NCBI GenBank assembly: GCA_963749495.1
Contig: CAVVMW010000023.1
Span: 736,001 to 800,000, forward strand
Direction: 5' to 3'
Source of the DNA: an uncultured bacterium
GTDB lineage: Bacteria > Verrucomicrobiota > Verrucomicrobiia > Limisphaerales > UBA8199
DNA: 64,000 nt
The notes beneath the pieces were generated by a model. That model did not search any database. It had not been told where the DNA came from and saw only the letters and a program-made list of their open reading frames with translations. Each line of letters begins with the position of its first letter. Within the stretch, counting starts at the first letter, position 1. This document shows positions 3,753 to 63,382 of the stretch, one piece after another. Position numbers and translations under genes: made by a program.

Positions 3753-4580
3753 ATGAGTACGACGTACCTGGACAACTATTTGAATGACATCGGACGATTC
3801 GCGTTGCTGACAGCGGAAGAAGAAATCGAGTTGGGCAAGGCCATACGCGAAGGCAGCGGCGACGAAACCTCGCGGGCAGAAATCAAATTGATCGAGGCCA
3901 ACCTCAGGTTAGTGGTGTCCGTTGCCAAACGCTGGCAGCACACGCACCTCAACATGGAGGAATTGATCTCCGCCGGCAACGAAGGGCTGCAAATCGCCGC
4001 CAAGAAATACAATTACCGCGTGGGCACCCGTTTTTCGACTTACGCCACCCAATGGATCGAGCAGAGCATTCGCATGGCGGCCAATCACGCGCACACGGTC
4101 CGAGTTCCGATCCGGCGCTCTTACCAGCTGCACAAGGTGCTCACCGCTCCCAGCTACAATGAAGACGCCCCATGCCAGGACGCGGAACAAATCGCGCGCG
4201 AGACCAACCTGCGGGTTTCCAACGTCCGTTACGTCCTGCGCAACCGGGTGACCGAGGTGAGCCTCGATTCACCCGCCTGCGATGGGAGCGACGAATCAGT
4301 GGGCGGGGTCATCCCGGACGAGTGCTGTCTCCAGCAGGAGCTGATGCAAAGCGAAGACCTCGAGATCGTCCGCAAAGCCTTGGCGGAGTGCCTGAGCGAA
4401 CAGCAACAGTTTGTCATCAAGCAGCGCTTCGGATTCGACGGGCCCAAGGTAACCCTCAAGGCGATTGGCGATCAAATCGGGCTGACCCACGAGCGGGTTC
4501 GCAAGATTGAGCAAAAAGCCCTGGCCAGCCTTCGCCAGAAGCTCAGCGAGGCGCTCCAGCTTACCCTGGAGGCCGCTTAA
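3753..4580 (+). CDS. RNA polymerase sigma-70 factor, RpoD/RpoS-like (regions 1.2-4)
   Basis: YLNDIGRFALLTAEEEIEL (1.2), LIEANLRLVVSVAK (2.1), RFSTYATQWIEQSI (2.3-2.4), TLKAIGDQIGLTHERVRKIEQKAL (4.2). Confidence 0.93.
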   Translation: MSTTYLDNYLNDIGRFALLTAEEEIELGKAIREGSGDETSRAEIKLIEANLRLVVSVAKRWQHTHLNMEELISAGNEGLQIAAKKYNYRVGTRFSTYATQWIEQSIRMAANHAHTVRVPIRRSYQLHKVLTAPSYNEDAPCQDAEQIARETNLRVSNVRYVLRNRVTEVSLDSPACDGSDESVGGVIPDECCLQQELMQSEDLEIVRKALAECLSEQQQFVIKQRFGFDGPKVTLKAIGDQIGLTHERVRKIEQKALASLRQKLSEALQLTLEAA

Positions 4581-51487: not shown

Positions 51488-52474
51488 ATGAGGAATCCCA
51501 ACGCCATCAGACCGCAGGCGCAGGAGCTCAACGAAAGCATCCGTCGGCCGGAGGACATTCTTAAGCTCCCGGTGGGGCCGGTCATGGTCGAGCCGAAATT
51601 CGACGGCTCTTTCGCCTACATCACGCGGGATCGCGCCACGGGGGAGACCGTGATCTGCACCAGGGATGGAAACCAAATCCAGCTTGAACCGGCAGTCCAA
51701 AACTTCATCGGCCATCACTTTGCGCCCTTGACGGAGCACTTCCTCTTCGAAGCCGAGATCGAGCCCTCACCCTGGACGGAAACCAACAAGGTCCTCTTGA
51801 ACGGCAATCTCTACACCGCCAAGCCAATGCCATTTCAGATTCACCTTGTGGTGCATGATGTGCTGCCCATGGACGAGATCGGAAAGCCCGCATCCAAGGC
51901 GCGCGAACGTTACGGTTTGATGCGCAGCCTGGCCGGTGTGGCGGAAGAAGTGAAGCTGGCGCAACCGTACGTCTGGGACAAAAGCGAGCGCGCCAGTATC
52001 TGTATTACGCCTTGTCAGGAGCTCACGCTGGGCGAGGCCGCCGAGTTGTTTCGCCAGGGGTGGGAGGCCGGGAAGGCCCGGAAGCGCGTCATGGTGGCCG
52101 GGCTTCCCTACGAGGGCATCGTGCTCGTGAACCCGGAAAGCCTGCACAAAGGCGGCCGGAGCAACAAATGGAAGGTGAAGCCGTTTCACACCCTGGACAT
52201 CCGGGTCACGGAACTCAGGGCAGGGCACAGCGGCACAGTCCCGCTCTTCGAGGTCCACGGGTACGACACCAAGACCGGCGACACCGCCAAGATCACCAGC
52301 GGAATCAGTCCCGAAATGTTTGCGGCGCTCGAGCGCACCGAAAAGCGATATGCCGCCATGGTCGTCGAGGCAGAGGTTTCCTCGCTCAAAGATCTGAACG
52401 CCGCCAACCCGACCCTCTTGACGATCCGCTACGACAAGATGGGCTCGCCGAAACCGGAGCCAGAACTGGTTTGA
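51488..52474 (+). CDS. Minimal ATP-dependent DNA ligase-like nucleotidyltransferase
   Basis: Motif I EPKFDG, III FEAEI, IIIa VHDVL, IV YEGIV, V WKVKP, followed by an OB-like tail ending IRYDK. Confidence 0.78.
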   Translation: MRNPNAIRPQAQELNESIRRPEDILKLPVGPVMVEPKFDGSFAYITRDRATGETVICTRDGNQIQLEPAVQNFIGHHFAPLTEHFLFEAEIEPSPWTETNKVLLNGNLYTAKPMPFQIHLVVHDVLPMDEIGKPASKARERYGLMRSLAGVAEEVKLAQPYVWDKSERASICITPCQELTLGEAAELFRQGWEAGKARKRVMVAGLPYEGIVLVNPESLHKGGRSNKWKVKPFHTLDIRVTELRAGHSGTVPLFEVHGYDTKTGDTAKITSGISPEMFAALERTEKRYAAMVVEAEVSSLKDLNAANPTLLTIRYDKMGSPKPEPELV

Positions 52475-53091: not shown

Positions 53092-54528
53092 TCAGGTCCG
53101 ACACGGCAACACCGCCCGATCTCCCCGCGCGAGAATTGATTTCGATGAACTGCTACAGTGCAGGCATGTCGCACTGGCTTTGCAATCAGCCGACATCCAA
53201 CGGCGCTCGCGGCAGAAATGCATGCTGTAACCTCTTCGCGCGGACTTGCTGAACAGACCGGAGTAGCCGAGAAGAAAATCGTTCGCCGCCTGCGCTGCGG
53301 CAACAGCGTTCAGCGTTATGACGCTGGGCGCAAACACCAGTTCATCGTCCACGTACGCTTGTCGTTGGCGTTCCCGCTCCGTGAACGCTTCTTGTTGCAG
53401 CTTGGCGGCAGAGATAAGCCCGTTGCAAAGCAGACAGCCGCCGCCGGCATGAGGCAACACGGGTCGCGAAACCGCGAAGATTTCACCGATTTCGCCGGTT
53501 TCCTTGTCAACGGGAACCTTCGAACCGACTTGGACGCCCGGGATTTGGTACTGATGCACAAGGGCGTTGAAGACCAATCGAGCTTGTGCAGAGTCGGCGC
53601 AAAGAAAAATGAAATCGGCGTCTTTGAGCAACAACGCAGCGTCGCGTCGCGTGACGTCGTCAACCACCGCACGATAACGGATTCTCGGATTTGCGCGTTT
53701 TGCAACACGCTCTGCGACCTTCACCTTGAACCTCGCCAAGCGGCGGCCCAACCTTTGCATCCCACTCCAGTTCATCATCGAGAGGAACACCCGGGCGTCG
53801 CACGGCCGCGAGCCGACGACGCGCGGTTGGTTGCTCGGATCGAGTTTGTCAAAGTCAATTCCGACAATTTTGCCGATTCCCAGGTGCGCCAGCCATTCGT
53901 TCAGGAGCGAGCCGGCGCCGCCGAGTCCGATGATGCCCACCTTTGCTCGCTTCAGGATTTCCTGACCTCCCGCTCCAAAAATCAGGGACTGGCGGTGATA
54001 AAGTGGAATGGCCGCGATGGGTGACTTCTGTGGTGACGGGTAAAGCCGGCGGATGTTTTGTCCGATGACAACGAGGTTTTCGAGCGGGAACACACCCTCC
54101 ACAGTCCAGATGCTTCCCGCGACGGCTTTACGCGCAAACACGAGCGCGCCGACCGGGCCCCCTCTGGTAATATCCAGCAGCGCCGGGTAGCCGCGACGGT
54201 GCGACTTCACGTCGGCCGTGGAAAAACCCACGAAATCATCTCCCTCGTGACAATGCACGGCGAGGTAGCACAAGTTCTCTTGCGCGCAATGATGCGAAAC
54301 ACGGGCGACGAAATCGGCCGTGAGCGCCCGATAGCCATACTTTCCCGGCACGTAATCAATGCCGTCTTTCGCAACGAAAACCTCGCGGGCAAGCAAGCGC
54401 GCTTCGCGGCCTGATTCGCAAATGCCGGCGGCAATAATCGCTCCGTGCTCGTCAGCGTCGCCGGGGAACAAATGGGACATGAGTTGCTCGAAGAGCGTCT
54501 CCGAAATTCTGAACGTAAATTTCTTCAT
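53092..54528 (-). CDS. JAB peptidase-ThiF/E1 fusion protein
   Basis: JAB: EHGA...HCH-x8-S-x2-D. E1: GLGGAGS, DFDKLDPSNQPR, CADS, CLLC and CLHC Zn sites. ATGA overlap with the E2 gene. Confidence 0.88.
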   Translation of the reverse strand: MKKFTFRISETLFEQLMSHLFPGDADEHGAIIAAGICESGREARLLAREVFVAKDGIDYVPGKYGYRALTADFVARVSHHCAQENLCYLAVHCHEGDDFVGFSTADVKSHRRGYPALLDITRGGPVGALVFARKAVAGSIWTVEGVFPLENLVVIGQNIRRLYPSPQKSPIAAIPLYHRQSLIFGAGGQEILKRAKVGIIGLGGAGSLLNEWLAHLGIGKIVGIDFDKLDPSNQPRVVGSRPCDARVFLSMMNWSGMQRLGRRLARFKVKVAERVAKRANPRIRYRAVVDDVTRRDAALLLKDADFIFLCADSAQARLVFNALVHQYQIPGVQVGSKVPVDKETGEIGEIFAVSRPVLPHAGGGCLLCNGLISAAKLQQEAFTERERQRQAYVDDELVFAPSVITLNAVAAAQAANDFLLGYSGLFSKSARRGYSMHFCRERRWMSADCKASATCLHCSSSSKSILARGDRAVLPCRT

Positions 54529-54920
54529 TGGCCTCTTATCCAATCCAACACTTTTGCCAGCTTGAGAGCGGCGGTGTCCGTTTCCGGATTCAAACGATTC
54601 GAGCGGCGTGACAGCATGATTGCCGGTTCGGTCGCCTTCGGCGTTCGCCACTGGTTGTTCAGGTTGAACCCGCCGCCGAGCGAACGTCCGTCCTTTCGTT
54701 TCAATGCCGGAATGCAGAAATGCGGATAAATGTCCGCGAACGGATATTGAAACGTGATTGGGAACGCGAGCCACGACACAGACGGCTCGTACTTATCGCC
54801 AAGGATCAGGTCGTGAACCTTGACGTAGGCACCGCCGTCTGTGTCCGGGTCAACGTCCATCTGGCGACGGGGAAATGCGACTCGGATTTCCGCGATCGCT
54901 TGTTGAACCGCGGCTGTCAC
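54525..54920 (-). CDS. Prokaryotic E2-like (UBC-fold) protein
   Basis: YP...YPHF..P.L.R.DG...LSRRS...NP..DT pattern; located between the Ubl and E1 genes. Confidence 0.75.
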   Translation of the reverse strand: MTAAVQQAIAEIRVAFPRRQMDVDPDTDGGAYVKVHDLILGDKYEPSVSWLAFPITFQYPFADIYPHFCIPALKRKDGRSLGGGFNLNNQWRTPKATEPAIMLSRRSNRLNPETDTAALKLAKVLDWIRGQ

Positions 54921-54922
54921 GG

Positions 54923-55669
54923 CTAGGAGTTGTCGTCGGGCGTGACACAACGGAATTCCTCGCAGTCCCTGAGCGTGACTTTTTCGGAGTCGCCGATGGA
55001 TGCGCCCAGGGTGCCGTCCGGCTTCACTTTGTAGAGAACGCCATCAAGGGTGATTTTTACCTGCTGCGCGATGGCGGTCTGCTTGATTTCGAGACCAGTG
55101 ACCCGCCGTTTGTGGAATGTCACCGGATAATTGTTCACCTTCACCGTGATGGTGACGCGCTCCGTGCGAAACACTGGGCCGTCGGCGAAGTTGGCCGCCT
55201 CGTCATCCGCGATTGGCTCGTCGTGCGGCAACTCGTAGTCACGCAGCAACTCGACTTGCGCTGAAAGCTCGAACAGCCGGCGCAAGGTCGCACCAGTCTG
55301 GCGGGGATCAAGAGTGATTTCCCATTCATCGTCCACCACGAATGCACATTTCGCCGGTTCATGGCATGGCGGTGGCGGCGCGGCTTCGCAGAGCGGGATC
55401 ACTCGGAAGACATTTCCCGCTGCCAGATCGATCTCGGCCTCCTCCGCGACGACCACGTCATTGCGGGATTGATAATCGCGCACCAGCACGAAGCCCGCAC
55501 CGATGCCGGCCTGGTCTTTGATGGTCTGGGCGGTCACGACCCGTCGAGGCATTGAAATCGCCCGATCGTTGACGAGAACCGCCCACTTTGGCGCGGGGCG
55601 GCAATCAGGCGCTTCCTTCGCCAGGGCTTTCTCCTGGCCCATTTGAATTTCCGAATCAGTCATAATCAT
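54923..55669 (-). CDS. Multi-ubiquitin (three beta-grasp) protein
   Basis: Three related ~70-aa units (VNDR..VTAQTIK, VDDE..TGATLR, VNNY..VTGLEIK); C-terminus VTPDDNS. Confidence 0.82.
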   Translation of the reverse strand: MIMTDSEIQMGQEKALAKEAPDCRPAPKWAVLVNDRAISMPRRVVTAQTIKDQAGIGAGFVLVRDYQSRNDVVVAEEAEIDLAAGNVFRVIPLCEAAPPPPCHEPAKCAFVVDDEWEITLDPRQTGATLRRLFELSAQVELLRDYELPHDEPIADDEAANFADGPVFRTERVTITVKVNNYPVTFHKRRVTGLEIKQTAIAQQVKITLDGVLYKVKPDGTLGASIGDSEKVTLRDCEEFRCVTPDDNS

Positions 55670-55849
55670 AACTTCGATTTTCTTTGTGTTCTGGACGCCG
55701 CCGAAGTTGTTCATCCGTCTGCGGCGAGCCGTTCCAATAGGGATTGCTGAAAACGCGGCCGACCGTGGGGCAAAGAATTTGCCGTTCTGCGAAAGATTTT
55801 CCCCCAAAGGCCAAGACTTGTTAGCCTGTTACGTGTGAATGGACCAACT

Positions 55850-56437
55850 ATGGACGACAACGCAATGAGCAAGCTGGGTGCGGTGGACTGGGACGATGCC
55901 GCGCCCCGGCTGCTTCAGTTTGCGCGCCGGTGGGCCGCTGGCCTTTACTATTGGTGCGAAGGCACCGCGCTGCCCAACGGGATGGGCATCGAGGACGTCG
56001 TCAAGGATGCCGTGGCGGCGTTCGCGCGCGGTGAACGAAAGTTCAATCCGCGTTTCGAGGTCATGGTCCAGTTGAAGGGCGCAATCCGCAGCATCCTGTG
56101 GAACATCCACAAGCGGAAAGCCGCGGGGTTGACGAGTTCGGAAGCGCCAGCGTTCTTCGAGGCGCAATTGGATGCGGCGCTCGACCCGGCAGCGAAGGCT
56201 GAAAGTGAAGATTTTTGCCGGACGTTGCTGGAAAGCCTCGCGGGCAACCAGCAGGTCCAGGACAGGCCGGAGTTGCTGGCCGTTGTGAAAGCGTATGCAG
56301 GCGGCGCCGAGTCCGTCGAAGAGTTGGTCGAACAAACCGGCCTGCCGGTGCGCCGCATCTACGAACTGCGCCGGCAGATGAGGGAGATCGCCGCTAAGGT
56401 CTTGGGAAGATTGAGCAGAAAGGGAAAAGCGTTATGA
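55850..56437 (+). CDS. ECF-like sigma factor / sigma-like regulator
   Basis: Region-2-like RLLQFARR...EDVVKDA...RKFNP...AIRSILWN and C-terminal HTH VEELVEQTGLPVRRIYELRRQM. Confidence 0.68.
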   Translation: MDDNAMSKLGAVDWDDAAPRLLQFARRWAAGLYYWCEGTALPNGMGIEDVVKDAVAAFARGERKFNPRFEVMVQLKGAIRSILWNIHKRKAAGLTSSEAPAFFEAQLDAALDPAAKAESEDFCRTLLESLAGNQQVQDRPELLAVVKAYAGGAESVEELVEQTGLPVRRIYELRRQMREIAAKVLGRLSRKGKAL

Positions 56438-56805
56438 GCAAGAGCTATCAGAATGCCGTTGAGCACCTGCATCTGTTTCTGGCCGACACGGAGGGCGAGA
56501 GCCGTGACGAGGTTACGCGTGGATTGCGCGCGGCGGGAGTGGATGTCAACCGATTTATTTCCGACATCAAACGGATTGCCGGGGTGCGAAGCGGGTTTTC
56601 CCGTGTGGGACGGTTCGCAAACAAGACGCGCGCGCAGATTCTGAAGCTGCTCGAAGAATTGCAGCTTGAAACTTCGGGGGCGTTTTCAAACGTCGGCCTG
56701 GCGGCCCGGGAAGGCGGCGGATTGAATCAGTTGTCCGATGAGCAACTTCGAACGTTGCTGGAAAAACTGGAGGCGGAGCGGTCGCACGACGAGTTGAAGG
56801 ACTAA
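56434..56805 (+). CDS. Small hypothetical protein coupled to the sigma-like gene (possible anti-sigma)
   Basis: ATGA overlap with the sigma-like stop; 123 aa, helical. Confidence 0.6.
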   Translation: MSKSYQNAVEHLHLFLADTEGESRDEVTRGLRAAGVDVNRFISDIKRIAGVRSGFSRVGRFANKTRAQILKLLEELQLETSGAFSNVGLAAREGGGLNQLSDEQLRTLLEKLEAERSHDELKD

Positions 56806-56835
56806 AGGGAGGTCTCTCGTCGCAAGCACAACAAA

Positions 56836-57831
56836 ATGACTGCCTGGAAGCCCAAACGAAATGGTTGGAACGGGCCAACCTGGTCCGTCAGCCGCAACCA
56901 ACAGCTCCAGACGTGCGAGCGCAAATACTATTTCCAGTATCTCGCTGGCGCACGGGTCAACGCCACCGAACCAATGCAACGGCGGCTCGGGATGCTGAAA
57001 AAGCTCAAAAGCATCCGCATGTGGGAAGGCGACTGTGTGCATTGGGCCGTCGCCCGTTTTCTCGGAGCGGTTCGAGACAAACGCAGTTTGAGCGCCGAAC
57101 AGGCACTGGCTCAGCTGCGGGATAAGATGGAACGTGAGTGGCAATTCTCGGAGCGGAGGTGTTTCCGGACGCAGCCGCTGCTCATTGACAAGGGCGGCTT
57201 GGGTCTGGTGGAGCACGAATACGATAGCGTGCCGGCGGGCGTTACTGCCGACAGTGTGTACGACGATGTCGCGAGTGGATTCCACAAATTCGTCGCGTGG
57301 GCGGACGGCATCTGCGCGAGAATTCGAGTTGCTGACAACGTTTGGATTGAGCCGCCCGTGTTTGGCCCGGAAGCGCCGGGCTTCCCTCTGGACGGCGTTC
57401 AAATCATCGGGAAGGTGGACCTTGCCATCGAGAAGAGCGGTGAGTTCTTTGAGATTTACGACTGGAAGACCGGCGGAGCACCGGTTCAGAAGAGATCCTG
57501 CATCACGCAAAACGAACTCCAGGTTTGCGTGTACCAATTGTGGCCGCATCTCTCGATGCGACTGCCGCTTAGTCTCGTGTCGAGCCAGTTGGTTTATCTG
57601 GGCGGTGAAACGCCGGAAGCCCGCACGCATCGTCTGGATGAAAACTCAGTGCCCCTCGTTGTTCAAATGGTGCGGAACAGCGTCGCGTTGGCAACCCGTT
57701 GGGAAAAGAATTTCGAGAAGGGCCTGTTGCGGCTGAACGATTTGGATTACGCCGCCTGGCCCGGCGCTTGTCGCGAGTGCGCGTTCAAAGCGGTCTGCCG
57801 TGAAAGTTTGCATTATGAAAACGTCGCCTAA
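56836..57831 (+). CDS. Cas4/RecB/AddB-like PD-(D/E)XK nuclease with a four-Cys cluster
   Basis: N-terminal CERKYYF; GKVDL, IYDWKTG and QVCVY motifs; C-terminal CRECAFKAVC. Confidence 0.88.
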   Translation: MTAWKPKRNGWNGPTWSVSRNQQLQTCERKYYFQYLAGARVNATEPMQRRLGMLKKLKSIRMWEGDCVHWAVARFLGAVRDKRSLSAEQALAQLRDKMEREWQFSERRCFRTQPLLIDKGGLGLVEHEYDSVPAGVTADSVYDDVASGFHKFVAWADGICARIRVADNVWIEPPVFGPEAPGFPLDGVQIIGKVDLAIEKSGEFFEIYDWKTGGAPVQKRSCITQNELQVCVYQLWPHLSMRLPLSLVSSQLVYLGGETPEARTHRLDENSVPLVVQMVRNSVALATRWEKNFEKGLLRLNDLDYAAWPGACRECAFKAVCRESLHYENVA

Positions 57832-60214
57832 CCGAAAGCTGCTGGCGGCGTCTCTGTTTGCCATCAGCGGGCTGCAGGGACTGCCGTTCAAGTTGCGTGT
57901 GCTGCGCGTCGTCAATGCGCTGCCGAATGACAATTATCGTCCCATTCGCCTGCAGGGATGGGCCGACAACCTCTGGCATGACGTGCTGAAGTGCCCGGTG
58001 TTTCCGACATCGCGCTTTGACTTTCCGGGGTTCATCGTTCCGGCCGACGCGGCCGCGGAAGTCGGTCAGGTGATTTCCTTGCCTGGTGTAGCAGATAAAG
58101 AGTTCCGCATCGAGGTCACTGATCGCGTTTTGGAAATCGATCCGAAACAGGCGCGGCCGGAGGAGCGCGACTTGGCGGGCAAGATGATTGAGCGCGTCAT
58201 CAGCGACCGTCTCAGCTCGCTCAAGTCGAAATTCTGGCGGACTGAATGGACGCTTTATTTCCACCTGCTTCCCGAGAACGAGCGGGAAGCACGTGACCGC
58301 GTCAACGCCTATCGCGGGTTCAAATTCGGCGTCGTGTTGCTGGAAACCGGCGAGCTTCTGTTGGCCGGCGACATTCGCACGAAATACATCGGGCGTCGCT
58401 CGCTTGCTCAATACGATCAGGTGGAGCGCGAACTCGTATTGGCTCGGCATCTGGACCTCGAAGTTGACATCGAAGACCGCGCCACGTTTGTGCGTGACAA
58501 CGGCTCGGCGAAATATTCGTGCCGCTACGCCGGGCCGACGGGACAATCCATCAGCGAGTATCGCATCAAAGAATTGAACCAGACTGTGCTGGACTTCTAC
58601 GTCAAGAACTATCCCCGACTCCGCCTCGATCCGAATGATGCGGCTGTATTCTTCGACAGCGGCGGGAAGAAGAAAGACATGGCTGCGCCGGCGTCACGAA
58701 TGTTTCCGGTGTTTACCACCGAGGATGAGAGTTTGCGCGAGTGCTCGATCAAACCCCAGATGACCCCCGAAGCGCGAGTTCAGGAAATCCATTCGTTCCT
58801 GGGCGAGCTCGCGGGATTGAATTACGCGGGACGGGACCTCAGCATCGATCGCGAACTCGTTACGCGCGAGCGCAGCATTTTTCTTCCGCCGAAACTTGAA
58901 TACGGCAAGGGCAACATTCTTGCACCGTATCCGCAGAACGGCAGGGCCGGCGCTGTATTACCCGATCTTGAAAAAGCGATTGCCGACTGGCGATTCAGCA
59001 AAATGCCAATGCTTTATCGGCACGGGCCGTATTTCAATGAGCCGCTGCCGGACGTGGTGTTCTTCTACCCTGATGGATTGCCTCGCGATATACGCGAAAG
59101 ATTTCTGGAGCAACTCGACCTGGAAATCCTCAAACAGACCGGATCGAAGATGAACGTCATCGCGCGCCGCTCGTACCGAATCGGACAAGCCGAGCGGAGC
59201 GGCGCGTCGCTGCTCGCAACCATCAAAACAGTTATTGGCGAACAGCCCGGAATGTTCCTGGCACTCGTCGCTCTGTGGGATCGTTTCCTTGACAGCGTGC
59301 ATCCGAATTTGAAGGACGCGGTGAAAGGCCGCCCTTCGCAATGTGTCACCGAGCGGGTGCTGCGGACGATTGCGAATACTACCGACCCGATGCGCGCCAC
59401 AGGGCGCGTCCGAAACCTCGCGCTTGGCGTTTTGATTGCCGCAGGCGTGCAACCCTGGGTCTTGTCGGAAGAACTGCACCACGACGTTTACATCGGCATC
59501 AACACTCTGCATGGCCGGGTCAGTTATCATTTTCTTTTCGGCAAGGGTGGTCGCCAGGTTTTGACCTCGCTCGGAGCGTCCATTAAGCGGGGACGAACAC
59601 AAGAGTCGCTGGACAAAGTGGAACTTCGGACAAGAATCGAGTCCACTGTTCGCGAGATTCATCAGGCCGGCCATCCGCTTCGCAGCGTGGTCGTCCATCG
59701 CGACGGACGCTGGTGGAAGCGTGAAAGTCAGGCGCTCAACGAAGCGGCCTCGAATTTGGTTCGCGACAAGATTCTGGCAAAGGATTGCGCCATCGGGGTG
59801 GTCGAAATCCGCAAGAGCCATTTTCCCGTCCGGCTGTTCACGAAAGTTGGGCCGCCGGCAAATCAGCTGCTGAATCCGCTTCCCGGCACTCACTTGGTGC
59901 TCGATCAGCAACGCGCTTTGCTTTCGACGACGGGCAGACCCGGCGCATGGGACAAGAGCGAAGGGCGAACCGCGGGAACGCTTCTGCTGAATCTCATCGA
60001 GAGTTCCCCGCCGATGGACATCGAGGCTTTGGCGGAAGACGCTTACCGGCTCACGCATCTAAATTGGAGTGCGCCCGAGATTGAAATTTCCGTCCCGGTC
60101 ACGATTCGGTGGAACGACGATGCGCTGCGGGCTTCGCTCGTTAGCCAGCAGCAGGAGGAAGATGAAACTTACGACGAGACGAACGAACTTAAGATGGAAG
60201 GAGCGAACGTATGA
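57815..60214 (+). CDS. Long prokaryotic Argonaute (N-L1-PAZ-L2-MID-PIWI), tetrad N-E-D-D
   Basis: PAZ-like TVLDFYVKNYP; MID H..LK...SQCV..NLALG..G.QPW; PIWI YIGIN, VVHRDGR, VEIRKS, LTHLNWS, PVTIRWND. Confidence 0.9.
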   Translation: MKTSPNRKLLAASLFAISGLQGLPFKLRVLRVVNALPNDNYRPIRLQGWADNLWHDVLKCPVFPTSRFDFPGFIVPADAAAEVGQVISLPGVADKEFRIEVTDRVLEIDPKQARPEERDLAGKMIERVISDRLSSLKSKFWRTEWTLYFHLLPENEREARDRVNAYRGFKFGVVLLETGELLLAGDIRTKYIGRRSLAQYDQVERELVLARHLDLEVDIEDRATFVRDNGSAKYSCRYAGPTGQSISEYRIKELNQTVLDFYVKNYPRLRLDPNDAAVFFDSGGKKKDMAAPASRMFPVFTTEDESLRECSIKPQMTPEARVQEIHSFLGELAGLNYAGRDLSIDRELVTRERSIFLPPKLEYGKGNILAPYPQNGRAGAVLPDLEKAIADWRFSKMPMLYRHGPYFNEPLPDVVFFYPDGLPRDIRERFLEQLDLEILKQTGSKMNVIARRSYRIGQAERSGASLLATIKTVIGEQPGMFLALVALWDRFLDSVHPNLKDAVKGRPSQCVTERVLRTIANTTDPMRATGRVRNLALGVLIAAGVQPWVLSEELHHDVYIGINTLHGRVSYHFLFGKGGRQVLTSLGASIKRGRTQESLDKVELRTRIESTVREIHQAGHPLRSVVVHRDGRWWKRESQALNEAASNLVRDKILAKDCAIGVVEIRKSHFPVRLFTKVGPPANQLLNPLPGTHLVLDQQRALLSTTGRPGAWDKSEGRTAGTLLLNLIESSPPMDIEALAEDAYRLTHLNWSAPEIEISVPVTIRWNDDALRASLVSQQQEEDETYDETNELKMEGANV

Positions 60215-60621
60215 GTCTATTGGGATTCATGTCCGTCAAGTTGGACAAGCAGCAAACGTTGCTGGAACGGCTCAACGAGGCGCTGCTCATGGTTCAAAGC
60301 GAATCGCTGGGCCGGGCCGCCGACCTCGGCTTCACGTCGGCGCAAATTGCCGCGGCGAAGGAAACGCTGCGCGAGTTCGTCAATCGCTTGCGGACAAAAC
60401 TGGCGGGCAACCAGGACAACGAAGAATTGAACGTCCTGGTGGCGCGAATTCGCGAAGGCCAGTTCGAGCTGAATGAATGGCTGGAGGAATTAGCGCAACT
60501 CGAAACGCAGTTGGCGCAACCCGGGCTGCTGCCGCTGACGGCCATTCCCACGCTGGAAGGAGTTTTGGCGATACTGGATGAAGAACTGACTGCCGAATTC
60601 AACCGGCTTTATTCGCGATAA
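60211..60621 (+). CDS. Small alpha-helical protein coupled to pAgo
   Basis: ATGA overlap with the pAgo stop; 136 aa, Leu/Glu-rich amphipathic helices. Confidence 0.75.
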   Translation: MSLLGFMSVKLDKQQTLLERLNEALLMVQSESLGRAADLGFTSAQIAAAKETLREFVNRLRTKLAGNQDNEELNVLVARIREGQFELNEWLEELAQLETQLAQPGLLPLTAIPTLEGVLAILDEELTAEFNRLYSR

Positions 60622-60636
60622 GCACAAGGATGGGGC

Positions 60637-61788
60637 ATGCCTTCATACCGGATCGCCAAGACGGCGGAATTGGATATACTCTTCGATTGGCTGGAGGATC
60701 AACTCCGCCAGCTGCGGCAGACCAATCCTGACCATCGCGTCGTCCTTGATTATCTCGACCAGCAATACACCCAGGCCGAGAACAAGCTTGCGCTCCTCCA
60801 GGCTTTGCTGGCGCTCAAAGACCCGAACCTCGACAAACGCGCCGACAGGCTGGCTCACGACTTGTCTCGCCACGTTATTCCGACGGCGAACCACTATATC
60901 GCGGGTCTGCAGCGGCAAGGCCCGCAGGACCGGCGAGTAAGGCAGGTGCTGCTGCGTCTGTGCCAGCGGCTCCGGTTGGATTGGATTGAAGACATCCTGG
61001 TCTGCTTGCTGCGGGATTTGGCATTGCTGGCTGAATACCGCGGAATCTTCGCCATCCCGGTGTTCTACGGCCCGCCGCATCTGCTGGAGACAATTCTCGA
61101 AGTCCCCGGAATTTATCACGAATTCGGTCATAGCGTCTTCGCGAGGGATGACGTGTTCCTTCGCGAAATGTCCTCAATCGTGAAGCGCCATTTCGTCCAA
61201 CTGAAACAACAGGCCGGCCCGATTCCACCGGTGCAGAAGGCGCTCCGCGACCAGGAACTCGACCGTGCCGCCAACTCCTGGAGTGCGCTGTGGTTGGCCG
61301 AGGTTTTCGGCGACCTCTTCGCGGGATATGTTTGCGGGCCGGCCAATCTGGCTTCGATGGTGGACCTGGGCCGCGCTCAAGGTTTTCCTCCCTACCTGCT
61401 CGCCTCAAACTCACACCCGCCAAACTGCGCTCGCGTCCTGGTTTCCTATTTCGCCCTCTCCGACCAGCAACGTCAGCATCCAACCGTGCAAAAAATCCAC
61501 GACGCATGGCAGCATTTTGCCCGGGGATTTACACCCGGCCAGGATTATAAGTTGCGTTGTGCTGAGGATCTCTTGAGGTCGGTGGCCAACGCGGTCAATG
61601 CCCTCATCGCGCAACACCTGCCAAATATTCCTCGGTACACAAAGATGCCTCCTGATCTGGCATCGGCGCGGGCTGTGAAAGCCGGTATCGCCCTTGAAGA
61701 CCTTATCAATGCCGGGGTGACGATTCTCTTTGAAGCGCCGGCTGAATTTTCTGCCTGGCAGCAATCCTCTCGCCTGCTGATCGCGTGA
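60637..61788 (+). CDS. HEXXH gluzincin-like metallopeptidase
   Basis: YHEFGH, downstream EVFGD..A...GP and SHPP...R; starts 15 nt after the previous gene. Confidence 0.7.
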   Translation: MPSYRIAKTAELDILFDWLEDQLRQLRQTNPDHRVVLDYLDQQYTQAENKLALLQALLALKDPNLDKRADRLAHDLSRHVIPTANHYIAGLQRQGPQDRRVRQVLLRLCQRLRLDWIEDILVCLLRDLALLAEYRGIFAIPVFYGPPHLLETILEVPGIYHEFGHSVFARDDVFLREMSSIVKRHFVQLKQQAGPIPPVQKALRDQELDRAANSWSALWLAEVFGDLFAGYVCGPANLASMVDLGRAQGFPPYLLASNSHPPNCARVLVSYFALSDQQRQHPTVQKIHDAWQHFARGFTPGQDYKLRCAEDLLRSVANAVNALIAQHLPNIPRYTKMPPDLASARAVKAGIALEDLINAGVTILFEAPAEFSAWQQSSRLLIA

Positions 61789-62680: not shown

Positions 62681-63133
62681 ATGTTCACCAAAATCGCAAA
62701 GCCCTTGCTCGAAGGAGAAAGCACGCTCCACCTGGTTGTCTGCCGGGACAGTGACACCCAACTGCGCGTCACTGTCCATGTGATGGACCCCAAGCCGGAT
62801 GCCAACGCGAAGGAATCGGCGCTCTCGCGGCCTGTCACCATCGTGGACACGCCGGAGAATTTGGACGCCACCCTGGGTGACCAGCTCGCCAATTTCCAGG
62901 CGACTCGCCAGGAAGCGCGGTCCTCGCTCGCAGACGTTACCGCGGCACTCAAGGAGGAAGCTGACCAGAACCGCAAGAAGGCCCGGCAAACCCGCGCCAA
63001 ACTTGGAGCGCCTGAGAAGACTGGCGTCTCGGATACCACAGCCGCCAAAGCTGAGCGAACCGGAACGGCCCAAATGCAGCTTGGCGAGGCCACGCCAGCC
63101 CCGGCGCCCGCCCCCGTTGCCGCCGCAGCGTAG
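62681..63133 (+). CDS. PRTRC system protein E
   Basis: MFT.I...L.VTV...ALSRPVTIVDTPENLD..L followed by an Ala/Lys/Pro-rich tail. Confidence 0.8.
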   Translation: MFTKIAKPLLEGESTLHLVVCRDSDTQLRVTVHVMDPKPDANAKESALSRPVTIVDTPENLDATLGDQLANFQATRQEARSSLADVTAALKEEADQNRKKARQTRAKLGAPEKTGVSDTTAAKAERTGTAQMQLGEATPAPAPAPVAAAA

Positions 63134-63160
63134 CCAGAAACACAAAGGACTATCGACATT

Positions 63161-63382
63161 ATGAGCGTTACAGCCACCGCCAAGCTCAAACCCCTGACCC
63201 GGGTTTTCCAGTGGAACGGATTGGAAATTCCCGATCCAAACCCGCGTTTGAAGCCGGAGGAAGCAATCAAGCTGTTGAGCCCGGTTTACCCGGAACTCAA
63301 CAACGCCTCCCTTGAGGGCCCCTCTTTCCATGGGGACGATGAGGTCTACAAGCTTTGCACCCGCCTCGGCACCAAAGGGTGA
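63161..63382 (+). CDS. PRTRC system protein C (ubiquitin-like)
   Basis: RVFQWNG..IPDPNP....EE...YPELNNA..EGP...GTKG C-terminus. Confidence 0.88.
   Translation: MSVTATAKLKPLTRVFQWNGLEIPDPNPRLKPEEAIKLLSPVYPELNNASLEGPSFHGDDEVYKLCTRLGTKG

Follow-up and report, generated by a model that had tools for sequence, protein, structure and literature searches.

The stretch of DNA analysed here ("the window") comprises 64,000 nucleotides (nt) from an uncultured bacterium of the Verrucomicrobiota (GenBank assembly GCA_963749495.1, contig CAVVMW010000023.1, positions 736,001 to 800,000 of the forward strand). Between window positions 55835 and 61788 we found six closely spaced open reading frames (ORFs) on the + strand, g1 to g6, which form an operon holding a regulator gene, a Cas4-family nuclease gene, the gene of a long prokaryotic Argonaute (pAgo) and, at its end, genes for a small protein and a HExxH protein. 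This is a known kind of system, that of the DNA-guided RNA-cleaving (D-R) pAgos, in which the last two genes would form a latent-protease module that is as yet unexplored. The genes and the sites of interest within them are as follows:

55835 (GTG) or 55850 (ATG) to 56437, + strand: g1, 200 or 195 amino acids (aa), regulator with a C-terminal helix-turn-helix (HTH), weakly sigma-70-like
56434 to 56805, + strand: g2, 123 aa, matches no known family
56836 to 57831, + strand: g3, 331 aa, Cas4-family PD-(D/E)XK nuclease with four Fe-S cluster cysteines
57800 (GTG) or 57815 (ATG) to 60214, + strand: g4, 804 or 799 aa, long-A pAgo of the VbAgo type
59501 to 59503, + strand: codon AAC for Asn568 of g4, at the site of the first catalytic Asp in DEDD (D550 of VbAgo)
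60211 to 60621, + strand: g5, 136 aa, small protein, predicted partner of g6
60637 to 61788, + strand: g6, 383 aa HExxH protein, three-helix bundle (residues 1-95) followed by a zincin-like catalytic domain
61117 to 61131, + strand: codons of the HEFGH motif of g6 (residues 161-165)
61300 to 61312, + strand: codons of E222-V-F-G-D226 of g6 (family consensus ExFCD), E222 being the candidate third metal ligand

An earlier reading of this DNA, made from the sequence without database searches and called the original prediction below, had described a tightly packed six-gene operon. All six genes were present as it gave them, and the list of ORFs confirmed each detail of the packing: ATGA overlaps at 56434 (g1/g2) and 60211 (g4/g5), an overlap of 17 nt between g3 and g4 if the ATG at 57815 is taken as the g4 start codon, and gaps of 30 nt between g2 and g3 (56806-56835) and of 15 nt between g5 and g6 (60622-60636). 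Its reading of the gene content (a regulator, a small protein, a Cas4-like nuclease, a long pAgo, a second small protein and a HExxH protein) was also correct, going by the Pfam and PADLOC matches and by the invariant HExxH motif described below. The base composition of the operon is unremarkable (GC 0.57-0.60). A scan for consensus promoters was uninformative, with 2 found against 2.0 expected, while terminator-like sites were more numerous than in shuffled sequences (17 found against 8.8 expected, standard deviation 2.7); none of them lay on the + strand at the 3' end of the operon.

We retrieved 16 loci by a genome search with an alignment of g6 homologues and compared their ORFs to the six window proteins by BLAST. 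The complete six-gene set was found, with its order kept, in 11 of these loci (L003-L011, L014 and L015), and judging by this recurrence in related loci the arrangement exceeds what chance would produce. The identity of the six-gene loci to the window was 30-47%, with the exception of a single contig (L001/L003) on which all genes were 79-86% identical to those of the window but for g2 (72%). Two loci contained g3-g4-g5-g6 only (L012 and L013), and L016 held a remoter form of the cassette in which an XRE-type HTH gene comes first (XRE-g3-pAgo-119 aa-g6). L017 was a 3-kb contig with fragments only and L018 had a weak g6-like gene among transporter genes. At L002:7079-11653 a g3-pAgo-g6 cassette was split into several frames, with the pAgo in at least 4 pieces, and this broken cassette is either a decaying copy or the result of poor assembly. 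It should be noted that the records of L001, L002, L010 and L012 are titled after unrelated taxa (Bifidobacteriaceae, Methanobacteriaceae, Bifidobacterium, Nitrosotalea), and that metagenome-bin taxon labels are unreliable for this Verrucomicrobia-type cassette. PADLOC did not assign the whole set to a described system; it assigned g3 and g4 only, and had no model for g1, g2, g5 and g6, nor for the g5 and g6 genes of XRE-type loci. Nothing was found for g2, g5 and g6 in Pfam, NCBIfam, PHROGs or PADLOC, and for g1 too NCBIfam and PHROGs were of no help.

By its sequence, g4 is a D-R long-A pAgo of the VbAgo type. The best-scoring PADLOC pAgo models were those of pAgo_II (E = 1.3e-56), and a phmmer search matched g4 end to end with the VbAgo structure (PDB 9v65_A; E = 7.8e-207, 692 bits, residues 12-793 against 3-775). 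VbAgo is described as a mesophilic Argonaute from a Verrucomicrobia bacterium which uses DNA guides to cleave RNA, with the catalytic tetrad D550, E584, D617 and D756 (PMC10448046, PMC13219720). The pAgo of L014 is 43.5% identical to g4 and scored 1802 bits over 782 of 782 residues against VbAgo 9v65_A, indicating that VbAgo's own locus, or a near-identical one, carries the six-gene operon; the pAgo of L004 scored 1639 bits against VbAgo. The pAgo of L043 matched PliAgo (7r8f) with 1817 bits, L043 being PliAgo's own locus, and this locus holds homologues of g3, g5 and g6. A third D-R group may be represented by g4, whose distance to PliAgo (E = 2e-22) is much the same as that to the 8xih/9wmd chain (E = 3e-24). 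The 5'-phosphate pocket of the MID domain is of the [Y/H]K-Q type, with H501, K505, Q514 and N539 of g4 in the places of Y484, K488, Q497 and N521 of VbAgo (VbAgo residues from PMC10448046), and g4 ends in an acidic tail similar to that of VbAgo.

The tetrad of the window pAgo reads N568-E602-D635-D773, so that this copy does not have the intact DEDX. DEDD was intact in the other 77 of 78 aligned family pAgos (14 of 15 in a smaller alignment), and Asn was found at the first position only in the window; the closest relative, the 86% identical pAgo of L001, has Asp there. Two public contigs from relatives of ~87% identity (X3 and X7) read G at 59501, which corresponds to Asp. The sole near-identical public contig (X1) covers 59295-59445 and stops short of 59501, and Asn568 is therefore read from the assembly alone. 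Among public sequencing runs the best DNA run shared 0.23 of words with the window, and no RNA run was listed.

The nuclease g3 matched the Pfam family PDDEXK_1 (E = 4.1e-25, 89.6 bits against a cut-off of 22) and the PADLOC model Aga_Cas4-like_Nuc (E = 6.8e-23). Both the PD-(D/E)XK motif (D195 and D209-W210-K211) and the Fe-S cysteines, one N-terminal (C27) and three C-terminal (C312, C315 and C321), were invariant in 11 of 11 aligned homologues.

The g6 family is large and entirely without annotation. A search of 1.84 billion representative sequences with the g6 profile returned 1,044 clusters at E <= 0.001, 460 at E <= 1e-10 and 124 at E <= 1e-30, nearly all of ~380 aa, and the 39 close homologues were all unnamed and free of Pfam domains. 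Among 22 family members none matched any Pfam family, peptidase families included. Eight residues (H161, E162, H165, E222, D226, P261, P262 and R266) were invariant in these 22 sequences (alignment A2) and in a second alignment of 17 (A1), and the equivalent HExxH, E...D and HP...R positions were invariant in 45 more distant relatives (A7). Searches of viral contigs with two alignments brought up no relative of g6.

We modelled g6 with AlphaFold (AF2) at a mean predicted local distance difference test (pLDDT) of 94.7. The model contains a bundle (residues 1-95), short strands (121-144), the HExxH helix (156-170), a helix bearing E222 (217-233) and a helical C-terminal part; E222, invariant and placed on this downstream helix, is a candidate third metal ligand. 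When the full model was used in a VIA structure search, the results were filled by three-helix bundles matching residues 1-95, and the catalytic domain was therefore folded alone (pLDDT 89.6). With this domain the best matches included BepA (Z 5.5, 127 residues aligned, root-mean-square deviation 4.0), ZMPSTE24 (Z 5.1), M13 peptidases (Z 4.4-5.1, with Zmp1, PepO and neprilysin at Z 4.6-5.1) and lethal factor (Z 4.0-4.2). Zinc peptidases made up most of the top 12 rows which spanned the catalytic region (model residues 1 to ~220), with Z of only 4.4-5.5, and all of these scores are under the level at which the notes of the tool permit confidence. The zinc peptidases among the top rows are of families M48 and M13. 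Foldseek gave ZMPSTE24 rows for the full g6 model only (probability 0.6-0.8 at E 0.6-1.1). A scan of the genome with PF01435 (Peptidase_M48) did not report g6, and because the likeness in fold is weak and no M48 profile matches, we call g6 zincin-like and not a member of M48. In the Atlas the look-alikes of g6 were unnamed clusters, and the nearest named ones carry Peptidase_U49 or M48 in 16-25% of their members (scores 0.78-0.79), which we treat as a lead only. We consider it likely that g6 is a metal-dependent hydrolase.

The most conserved part of g5 is its N-terminus. In the close family M1, S2 and G5 were invariant in 10 of 10 sequences (A3); S8 also belongs to the invariant N-terminus, and R132/R136 stand at the C-terminus. 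Across the broad family S2 was kept in 64 of 70 members and Y11 in 65 of 70. In the XRE-type operons the window g5 has its homologue in a gene of ~120 aa (hhalign probability 93.6%, E = 2e-7). A model of the complex between g5 and g6 gave an interaction prediction score from aligned errors (ipSAE) of 0.78 (0.78, 0.79 and 0.78 in separate runs) against 0.00 for the best control; of 157 solved complexes 116 score this high, and of 215 mismatched pairs 2 do, a calibration which is rough as custom alignments were used. The runs shared at least 88% of contacts and the pLDDT of the partner was at least 82. In the predicted interface, residues 1-39 and 109-134 of g5 lie on the g6 bundle (50-86), on the strands 127-136 and on H161, E162, H165 and E222. 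The interface takes in g5 residues 1-13, and the model places this conserved N-terminus inside the HExxH cleft. We think that g5 and g6 probably bind each other, in a predicted 1:1 complex.

To see how the pair is distributed we used 80 loci from many phyla, retrieved with a g6 subfamily alignment (A8, a subset of the diverse A7) and classified by hidden Markov models built from the first locus set. Nuclease, full pAgo and g6 occurred together in 61 of them and a full pAgo without a nuclease match in 2; the pAgo was split or truncated by the contig in 5, only a remnant was left in 4, neither gene was found in 6 and 2 had too little upstream sequence. A pAgo was thus present in 68 of the 80 loci. 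The original prediction had held that rare co-occurrence would count against its operon; the association of pAgo with g5 and g6 is real, and that objection does not apply. A g5-sized ORF abuts g6 in 72 of the 80 loci, and in 70 of the 75 with enough upstream sequence the first gene of the cassette codes for an XRE-HTH protein. The 10 loci without an intact pAgo keep the XRE-HTH gene, a ~121-aa g5-like gene and g6, and four pAgo-less loci carry scars between the XRE gene and the g5-g6 pair:

L044:6310-6639 and L066:6310-6639: deletion scar, first ~87 residues of the nuclease
L089:6444-6644: deletion scar, first ~22 residues of the nuclease
L053:6349-6633: deletion scar, last ~75 residues of the pAgo

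These scars read as deletions of the nuclease and pAgo in which g5 and g6 were kept. As the pair stays under its regulator after such a deletion, we take it for a semi-autonomous unit, perhaps resembling a toxin-antitoxin pair.

Two of the pAgo-less pairs (L056:2920-11646 and L057:4882-6564) stand beside other genes of defence type, for GmrSD_N, an AAA_15/DUF3696 ATPase, a DUF1156 methyltransferase and an Eco57I-like methylase.

Of the 301 genomes sampled from the phylum, only the source genome had g6, which also occurred in 3 of 41 relatives and in none of 3 further genomes of the genus. Defence cassettes usually show such a patchy, island-like distribution.

The first two genes of the operon are less easily named. 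Against Pfam, g1 gave HTH_28 at its C-terminus (E = 0.0021) and Sigma70_r2 (E = 0.01) at 16 bits against a cut-off of 24, and among nine g1 family members a Sigma70_r2 match, below the cut-off, was seen in one and in none of the other eight. The source genome (11.4 Mb, 88% complete, 5.8% contamination) has 107 Sigma70_r2 matches; g1 is not among them, and the one which falls inside the window, at 3888-4076, is far from the operon. A search of the PDB with the g1 profile found no sigma factor, the best match being a Trp-repressor-like protein (E = 0.11). When aligned by hhalign to 14 extracytoplasmic function (ECF) sigma factors of the same genome, g1 gave E = 0.0019 at a probability of 14.5% over 153 columns, with at least one mistranslated row (L134) in the ECF alignment, and Sigma70_r2 or r4 is present in 18-40% of the members of its neighbours in the Atlas. 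These comparisons point to a weak, collinear likeness of g1 to sigma factors (region 2 plus region 4). The original prediction had called g1 sigma-like: that it is a regulator with an HTH holds, whereas its sigma nature is weakly supported. All 141 homologues of g1 lacked a Pfam domain, nearly all of the named ones were "hypothetical", and their loci were of this operon type only, in a locus search which did not reach the PnyAgo-type loci of the Bacteroidota. In g2 the N-terminal ~55 residues are conserved and the tail is variable and basic (alignment A5, 10 loci, 24-71% identity), and g2 is translationally coupled to g1 through the ATGA overlap.

By hhalign neither g1 nor g2 is related to the XRE regulators which head the other operon type, nor is g2 related to g5, while g6 is homologous between the XRE-type and the g1+g2-type operons (probability 100%). 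The head of the cassette has thus been swapped between operon types, XRE in one and g1 plus g2 in the other, while g3, pAgo, g5 and g6 stayed homologous.

The operon is flanked on both sides by ubiquitin-like modules. Divergent from it, at 53092-55807 on the - strand, is a three-gene ubiquitin-like conjugation cassette, possibly a further system of defence or of a mobile element within this island. The features observed around the operon were:

51488 to 52474, + strand: 328-aa ORF, no Pfam match at E <= 0.01, has a KFDG stretch
within 53092 to 55807, - strand: 294-aa Multi_ubiq protein (PF14452, 3.1e-11)
within 53092 to 55807, - strand: 141-aa ORF of no family
within 53092 to 55807, - strand: 560-aa ThiF/E1 protein (PF00899, 2.8e-26), with weak PADLOC E1-E2 matches (best 3.9e-10)
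62681 to 63382, + strand, ~900 nt past g6: 150-aa ORF matching no family, followed by a 73-aa Prok_Ub protein (PF14454, 1.1e-18)

The KFDG stretch of the first of these may resemble the nucleotidyl-transferase (ligase) motif.

Our preferred reading, to which we give about an even chance, is that the window holds a complete regulator-variant copy (sigma-like g1 plus g2) of the published D-R long-A pAgo operon from which VbAgo comes, with g5 and g6 as a latent-protease module. In such an operon g1 and g2 would control transcription of the cassette, and g3 would process the ends of invader DNA and supply or promote small DNA guides, by analogy with ACE1 of the APACE1 system. The pAgo would load 5'-phosphorylated DNA guides and bind complementary transcripts; cleavage in vitro is known for its 43.5%-identical kin VbAgo, and the window pAgo, with Asn for the first catalytic Asp, may bind without cutting. 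In the predicted complex g6 would be a latent metalloprotease whose HExxH cleft holds the invariant N-terminus of g5 as a bound inhibitor or a first substrate. The pair would then be a semi-autonomous unit acting as a second-line effector of the abortive-infection type, or as a switch, and not a part which the pAgo needs for RNA cleavage; that the module is toxin-antitoxin-like or an effector we put forward tentatively, at somewhat less than an even chance. The genes and their conservation, the families of pAgo and nuclease, the invariant HExxH and the persistence of g5 and g6 in loci lacking pAgo are observed directly, and the fold of g6 and its complex with g5 are predictions; RNA targeting in cells, the protease activity of g6, the supply of guides by g3 and the role of the pair are inferred.

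Several observations weigh against this reading. The window pAgo is without one catalytic Asp, and RNA cleavage by this particular copy may be absent. In the VbAgo-like locus (L014:4310-5630) the reading frame of g5 measures 100 aa instead of 136 and that of g6 350 instead of 383, which may reflect a frameshift error of a long-read contig or decay of both genes. For g3, a sequence search of the PDB found no Cas4-family chain beyond weak AdnAB-type matches (E = 0.087), and a guide-making role would be borrowed by analogy from a different Cas4 clade. Foldseek gave no PDB match at E <= 0.001 for either g6 model, structural Z scores were at most 5.5, and hhalign of g6 to 20 M48 domains of related genomes had a probability of 3.3% and aligned the HExxH alone, a motif which occurs in non-peptidases too. 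The model of the complex is a prediction in which an inhibitor and a substrate look the same. PADLOC and Pfam had no toxin-antitoxin match for g5 and g6, the toxicity of g6 is hypothetical, and retention of the pair could reflect recent deletions and not addiction. In the literature searched we found no published measurement of activity for g3, g5 or g6.

Part of this evidence can also be read in other ways. If g6 were a regulatory protease like ImmA/IrrE or CalpL, it would cleave the regulator of the cassette on a signal (XRE, or g2 as an anti-sigma-like partner of g1) and so turn on the operon or a wider regulon, with g5 as inhibitor or sensor. A regulator does head the cassette almost always (XRE directly upstream in 70 of 75 loci, g1 plus g2 in the 11 six-gene loci) and remains together with g5 and g6 when the pAgo is lost. 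The translational coupling of g1 and g2 is in line with this, since many sigma/anti-sigma pairs are translationally coupled, and CRISPR type III systems offer precedents of a protease with an anti-sigma and a sigma factor. We nevertheless think it unlikely, though worth keeping in mind, as g6 has no detectable likeness to ImmA/IrrE (Peptidase_M78) or to the Lon-type CalpL and no Pfam peptidase match in 22 members, the sigma nature of g1 is unproven, a regulator whose pAgo has been deleted would be kept for no purpose, and the exchange of XRE for the unrelated g1 plus g2 while g5 and g6 stayed homologous is awkward for a specific substrate. The original prediction had instead favoured a relay in which target-bound pAgo signals through g5, as a helical adaptor, to g6 as an obligate effector protease, as in short-pAgo or long-B systems. 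The overlap of the pAgo stop with the g5 start (ATGA at 60211), the position of g5 directly after the pAgo in most loci, the predicted place of g5 in the g6 active site, from which its displacement could activate g6, and the NEDD tetrad of the window pAgo, substituted as in effector-dependent pAgos, would all suit it. As stated, this relay found no support. Effector-coupled pAgos are catalytically dead in the descriptions to date (PMC10620215, PMC12094033), whereas three members of the present family are reported to cleave RNA alone in vitro (PMC9360449, PMC10448046). The intact DEDD in 77 of 78 family pAgos means that these need no effector, and g5 and g6 occur without an intact pAgo in 10 of 80 loci; we judge the relay to be improbable.

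Maturation of the pAgo is a further alternative, in which g6 with g5 would trim the pAgo, for example at an acidic auto-inhibitory C-terminal tail, or aid guide loading. The acidic C-terminus of VbAgo (764-782) is reported to block the nucleic-acid channel, its deletion raising activity in vitro (PMC13219720), and the window pAgo has a similar tail with the protease gene two genes downstream. However, g5 and g6 persist without pAgo, PliAgo is described as not using its C-terminus in this manner although the pair is in its locus (PMC9360449), and recombinant VbAgo, PliAgo and PnyAgo are active without g5 and g6, which leaves maturation with a very slim chance. It could also be that g6 is no protease, the HExxH serving another metal-dependent reaction or a structural role and g5-g6 being a scaffold. 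HExxH enzymes with non-proteolytic chemistry exist, and the absence of a peptidase family by sequence and the weak fold matches speak for such a role. On the other side stand the invariance of H161, E162, H165, E222 and D226 over the diversity of ~1,000 representative clusters sampled in A2 and A7, the zinc peptidases which make up most of the catalytic-region VIA matches, and the partner peptide predicted in the cleft; we regard a non-proteolytic g6 as highly improbable.

A bolder extension would make the operon the Argonaute counterpart of the CRISPR protease-sigma relays (Craspase-Csx30-RpoE and CalpL-CalpT-CalpS). Binding of a foreign transcript by the pAgo, even by an N568 copy which is perhaps dead for cleavage, would dislodge or expose g5; the uncapped g6 would cleave g5 and then g2 or host proteins, whereupon the sigma-like g1 would be released and transcription reprogrammed, or the cell would go dormant. 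We consider this speculative and quite unlikely. If it were true, the best-known RNA-targeting pAgos, VbAgo and PliAgo, would have been studied without their signalling half.

The original prediction had recognised no characterised system which also includes a helical adaptor, a gluzincin protease and a sigma-like regulator. For g5 and g6 we found no paper, but a related system is known: D-R pAgos of the VbAgo type are published, and conserved operons joining a Cas4-like nuclease to an HTH or sigma-70 regulator are in print (PMC9360449). Our literature searches returned no paper on genes downstream of D-R pAgos, and no description of a metalloprotease module in an Argonaute system was found in the literature searched. 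Lisitskaya et al. (2022) described two groups of D-R pAgos, each with operons of uniform gene composition, in which the pAgo is preceded by a Cas4-like PD-(D/E)XK nuclease together with an HTH regulator in the PliAgo group and a sigma-70 factor in the PnyAgo group, the latter having an HKQK MID pocket (PMC9360449). In that paper we found the nuclease, the regulator and the sigma factor named and no downstream genes, which its supplements and Tables S2-S3 of PMC6299218 may list. Before this, Makarova and colleagues (2009) had noted Cas4-like nucleases beside three long pAgos (PMC2743648), and Ryazansky and colleagues (2018) saw no defined pAgo operon compositions outside one group (PMC6299218). 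The natural function of D-R pAgos is left open in the 2022 discussion (PMC9360449), a 2024 paper describes in vivo analysis of pAgos as limited to DNA-guided DNA nucleases (PMC11162769), and we found no test of D-R Argonaute function in cells in the literature searched.

Among the other known systems, APACE1 resembles the operon in pairing an active long-A pAgo with a Cas4-family nuclease which has D-DxK and a 1+3 cysteine Fe-S "staple", and in it ACE1 is described as cooperating with DNA-cleaving cyanobacterial pAgos while ACE2 is uncharacterised (PMC12094033). It differs in that its pAgos cleave DNA, it has two genes and its description mentions no protease or small partner; ACE1 is moreover cyanobacterial and of ~278 aa, while g3, with 331 aa, is nearer to the ACE2 mean of 313 (PMC12094033). 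In the BPAN, BPAS and BPAM systems, too, a small operon encodes a full-length pAgo, next to a nuclease in BPAN, and the best PADLOC match of g4 was pAgo_II, but theirs is a dead long-B pAgo with the effector downstream (PMC10620215), whereas here the family has DEDD, g4 matches the long-A VbAgo and the Cas4-like nuclease lies upstream. Membership of the operon in the class of a long-B pAgo with a nuclease (BPAN) was ruled out on account of the DEDD of the family and this upstream nuclease. We also compared g6 with the M48/gluzincin peptidases (BepA, ZMPSTE24/Ste24) and with Lit, a defence protease (Peptidase_U49). It shares with M48 the HExxH, a Glu ~57 residues downstream in an ExxxD context and then HPxxxxR. 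It is unlike M48 and U49 in having no Pfam or profile match, in being soluble and in having its own N-terminal bundle, a C-terminal helical domain and a dedicated small partner.

The closest comparison is with the D-R operons of Lisitskaya et al. and with VbAgo itself. As in those operons, the window has a long-A pAgo, with DEDD in its family, a Cas4-like nuclease upstream and the regulator first, and the MID residues of its pAgo are of the HK type, in keeping with the HKQK pocket described for the PnyAgo group (PMC9360449); the difference is in g1, which has an HTH yet is not recognised as sigma-70 at the Pfam cut-off. DNA-guided RNA cleavage and DEDD are reported for VbAgo, PliAgo and PnyAgo (PMC10448046, PMC13219720, PMC9360449). 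VbAgo belongs to the same pAgo family as g4, with the same six-gene operon at L014, a near-identical locus, and at L004, and g4 keeps the last three tetrad residues (E, D and D), those of the MID pocket and the acidic C-terminal tail. It differs in its catalytic D550, where the window has N568, and in having been studied only as an isolated recombinant enzyme; in the text of the VbAgo papers the word "operon" appears 0 times in that of 2023 (PMC10448046) and once, on short pAgos, in that of 2026 (PMC13219720). VbAgo and PliAgo are under development as programmable RNA-cutting tools and are studied as lone enzymes, while their cassettes nearly always carry the conserved g5 and HExxH pair, which is predicted to form a capped-protease complex and which outlives the Argonaute in decayed loci.

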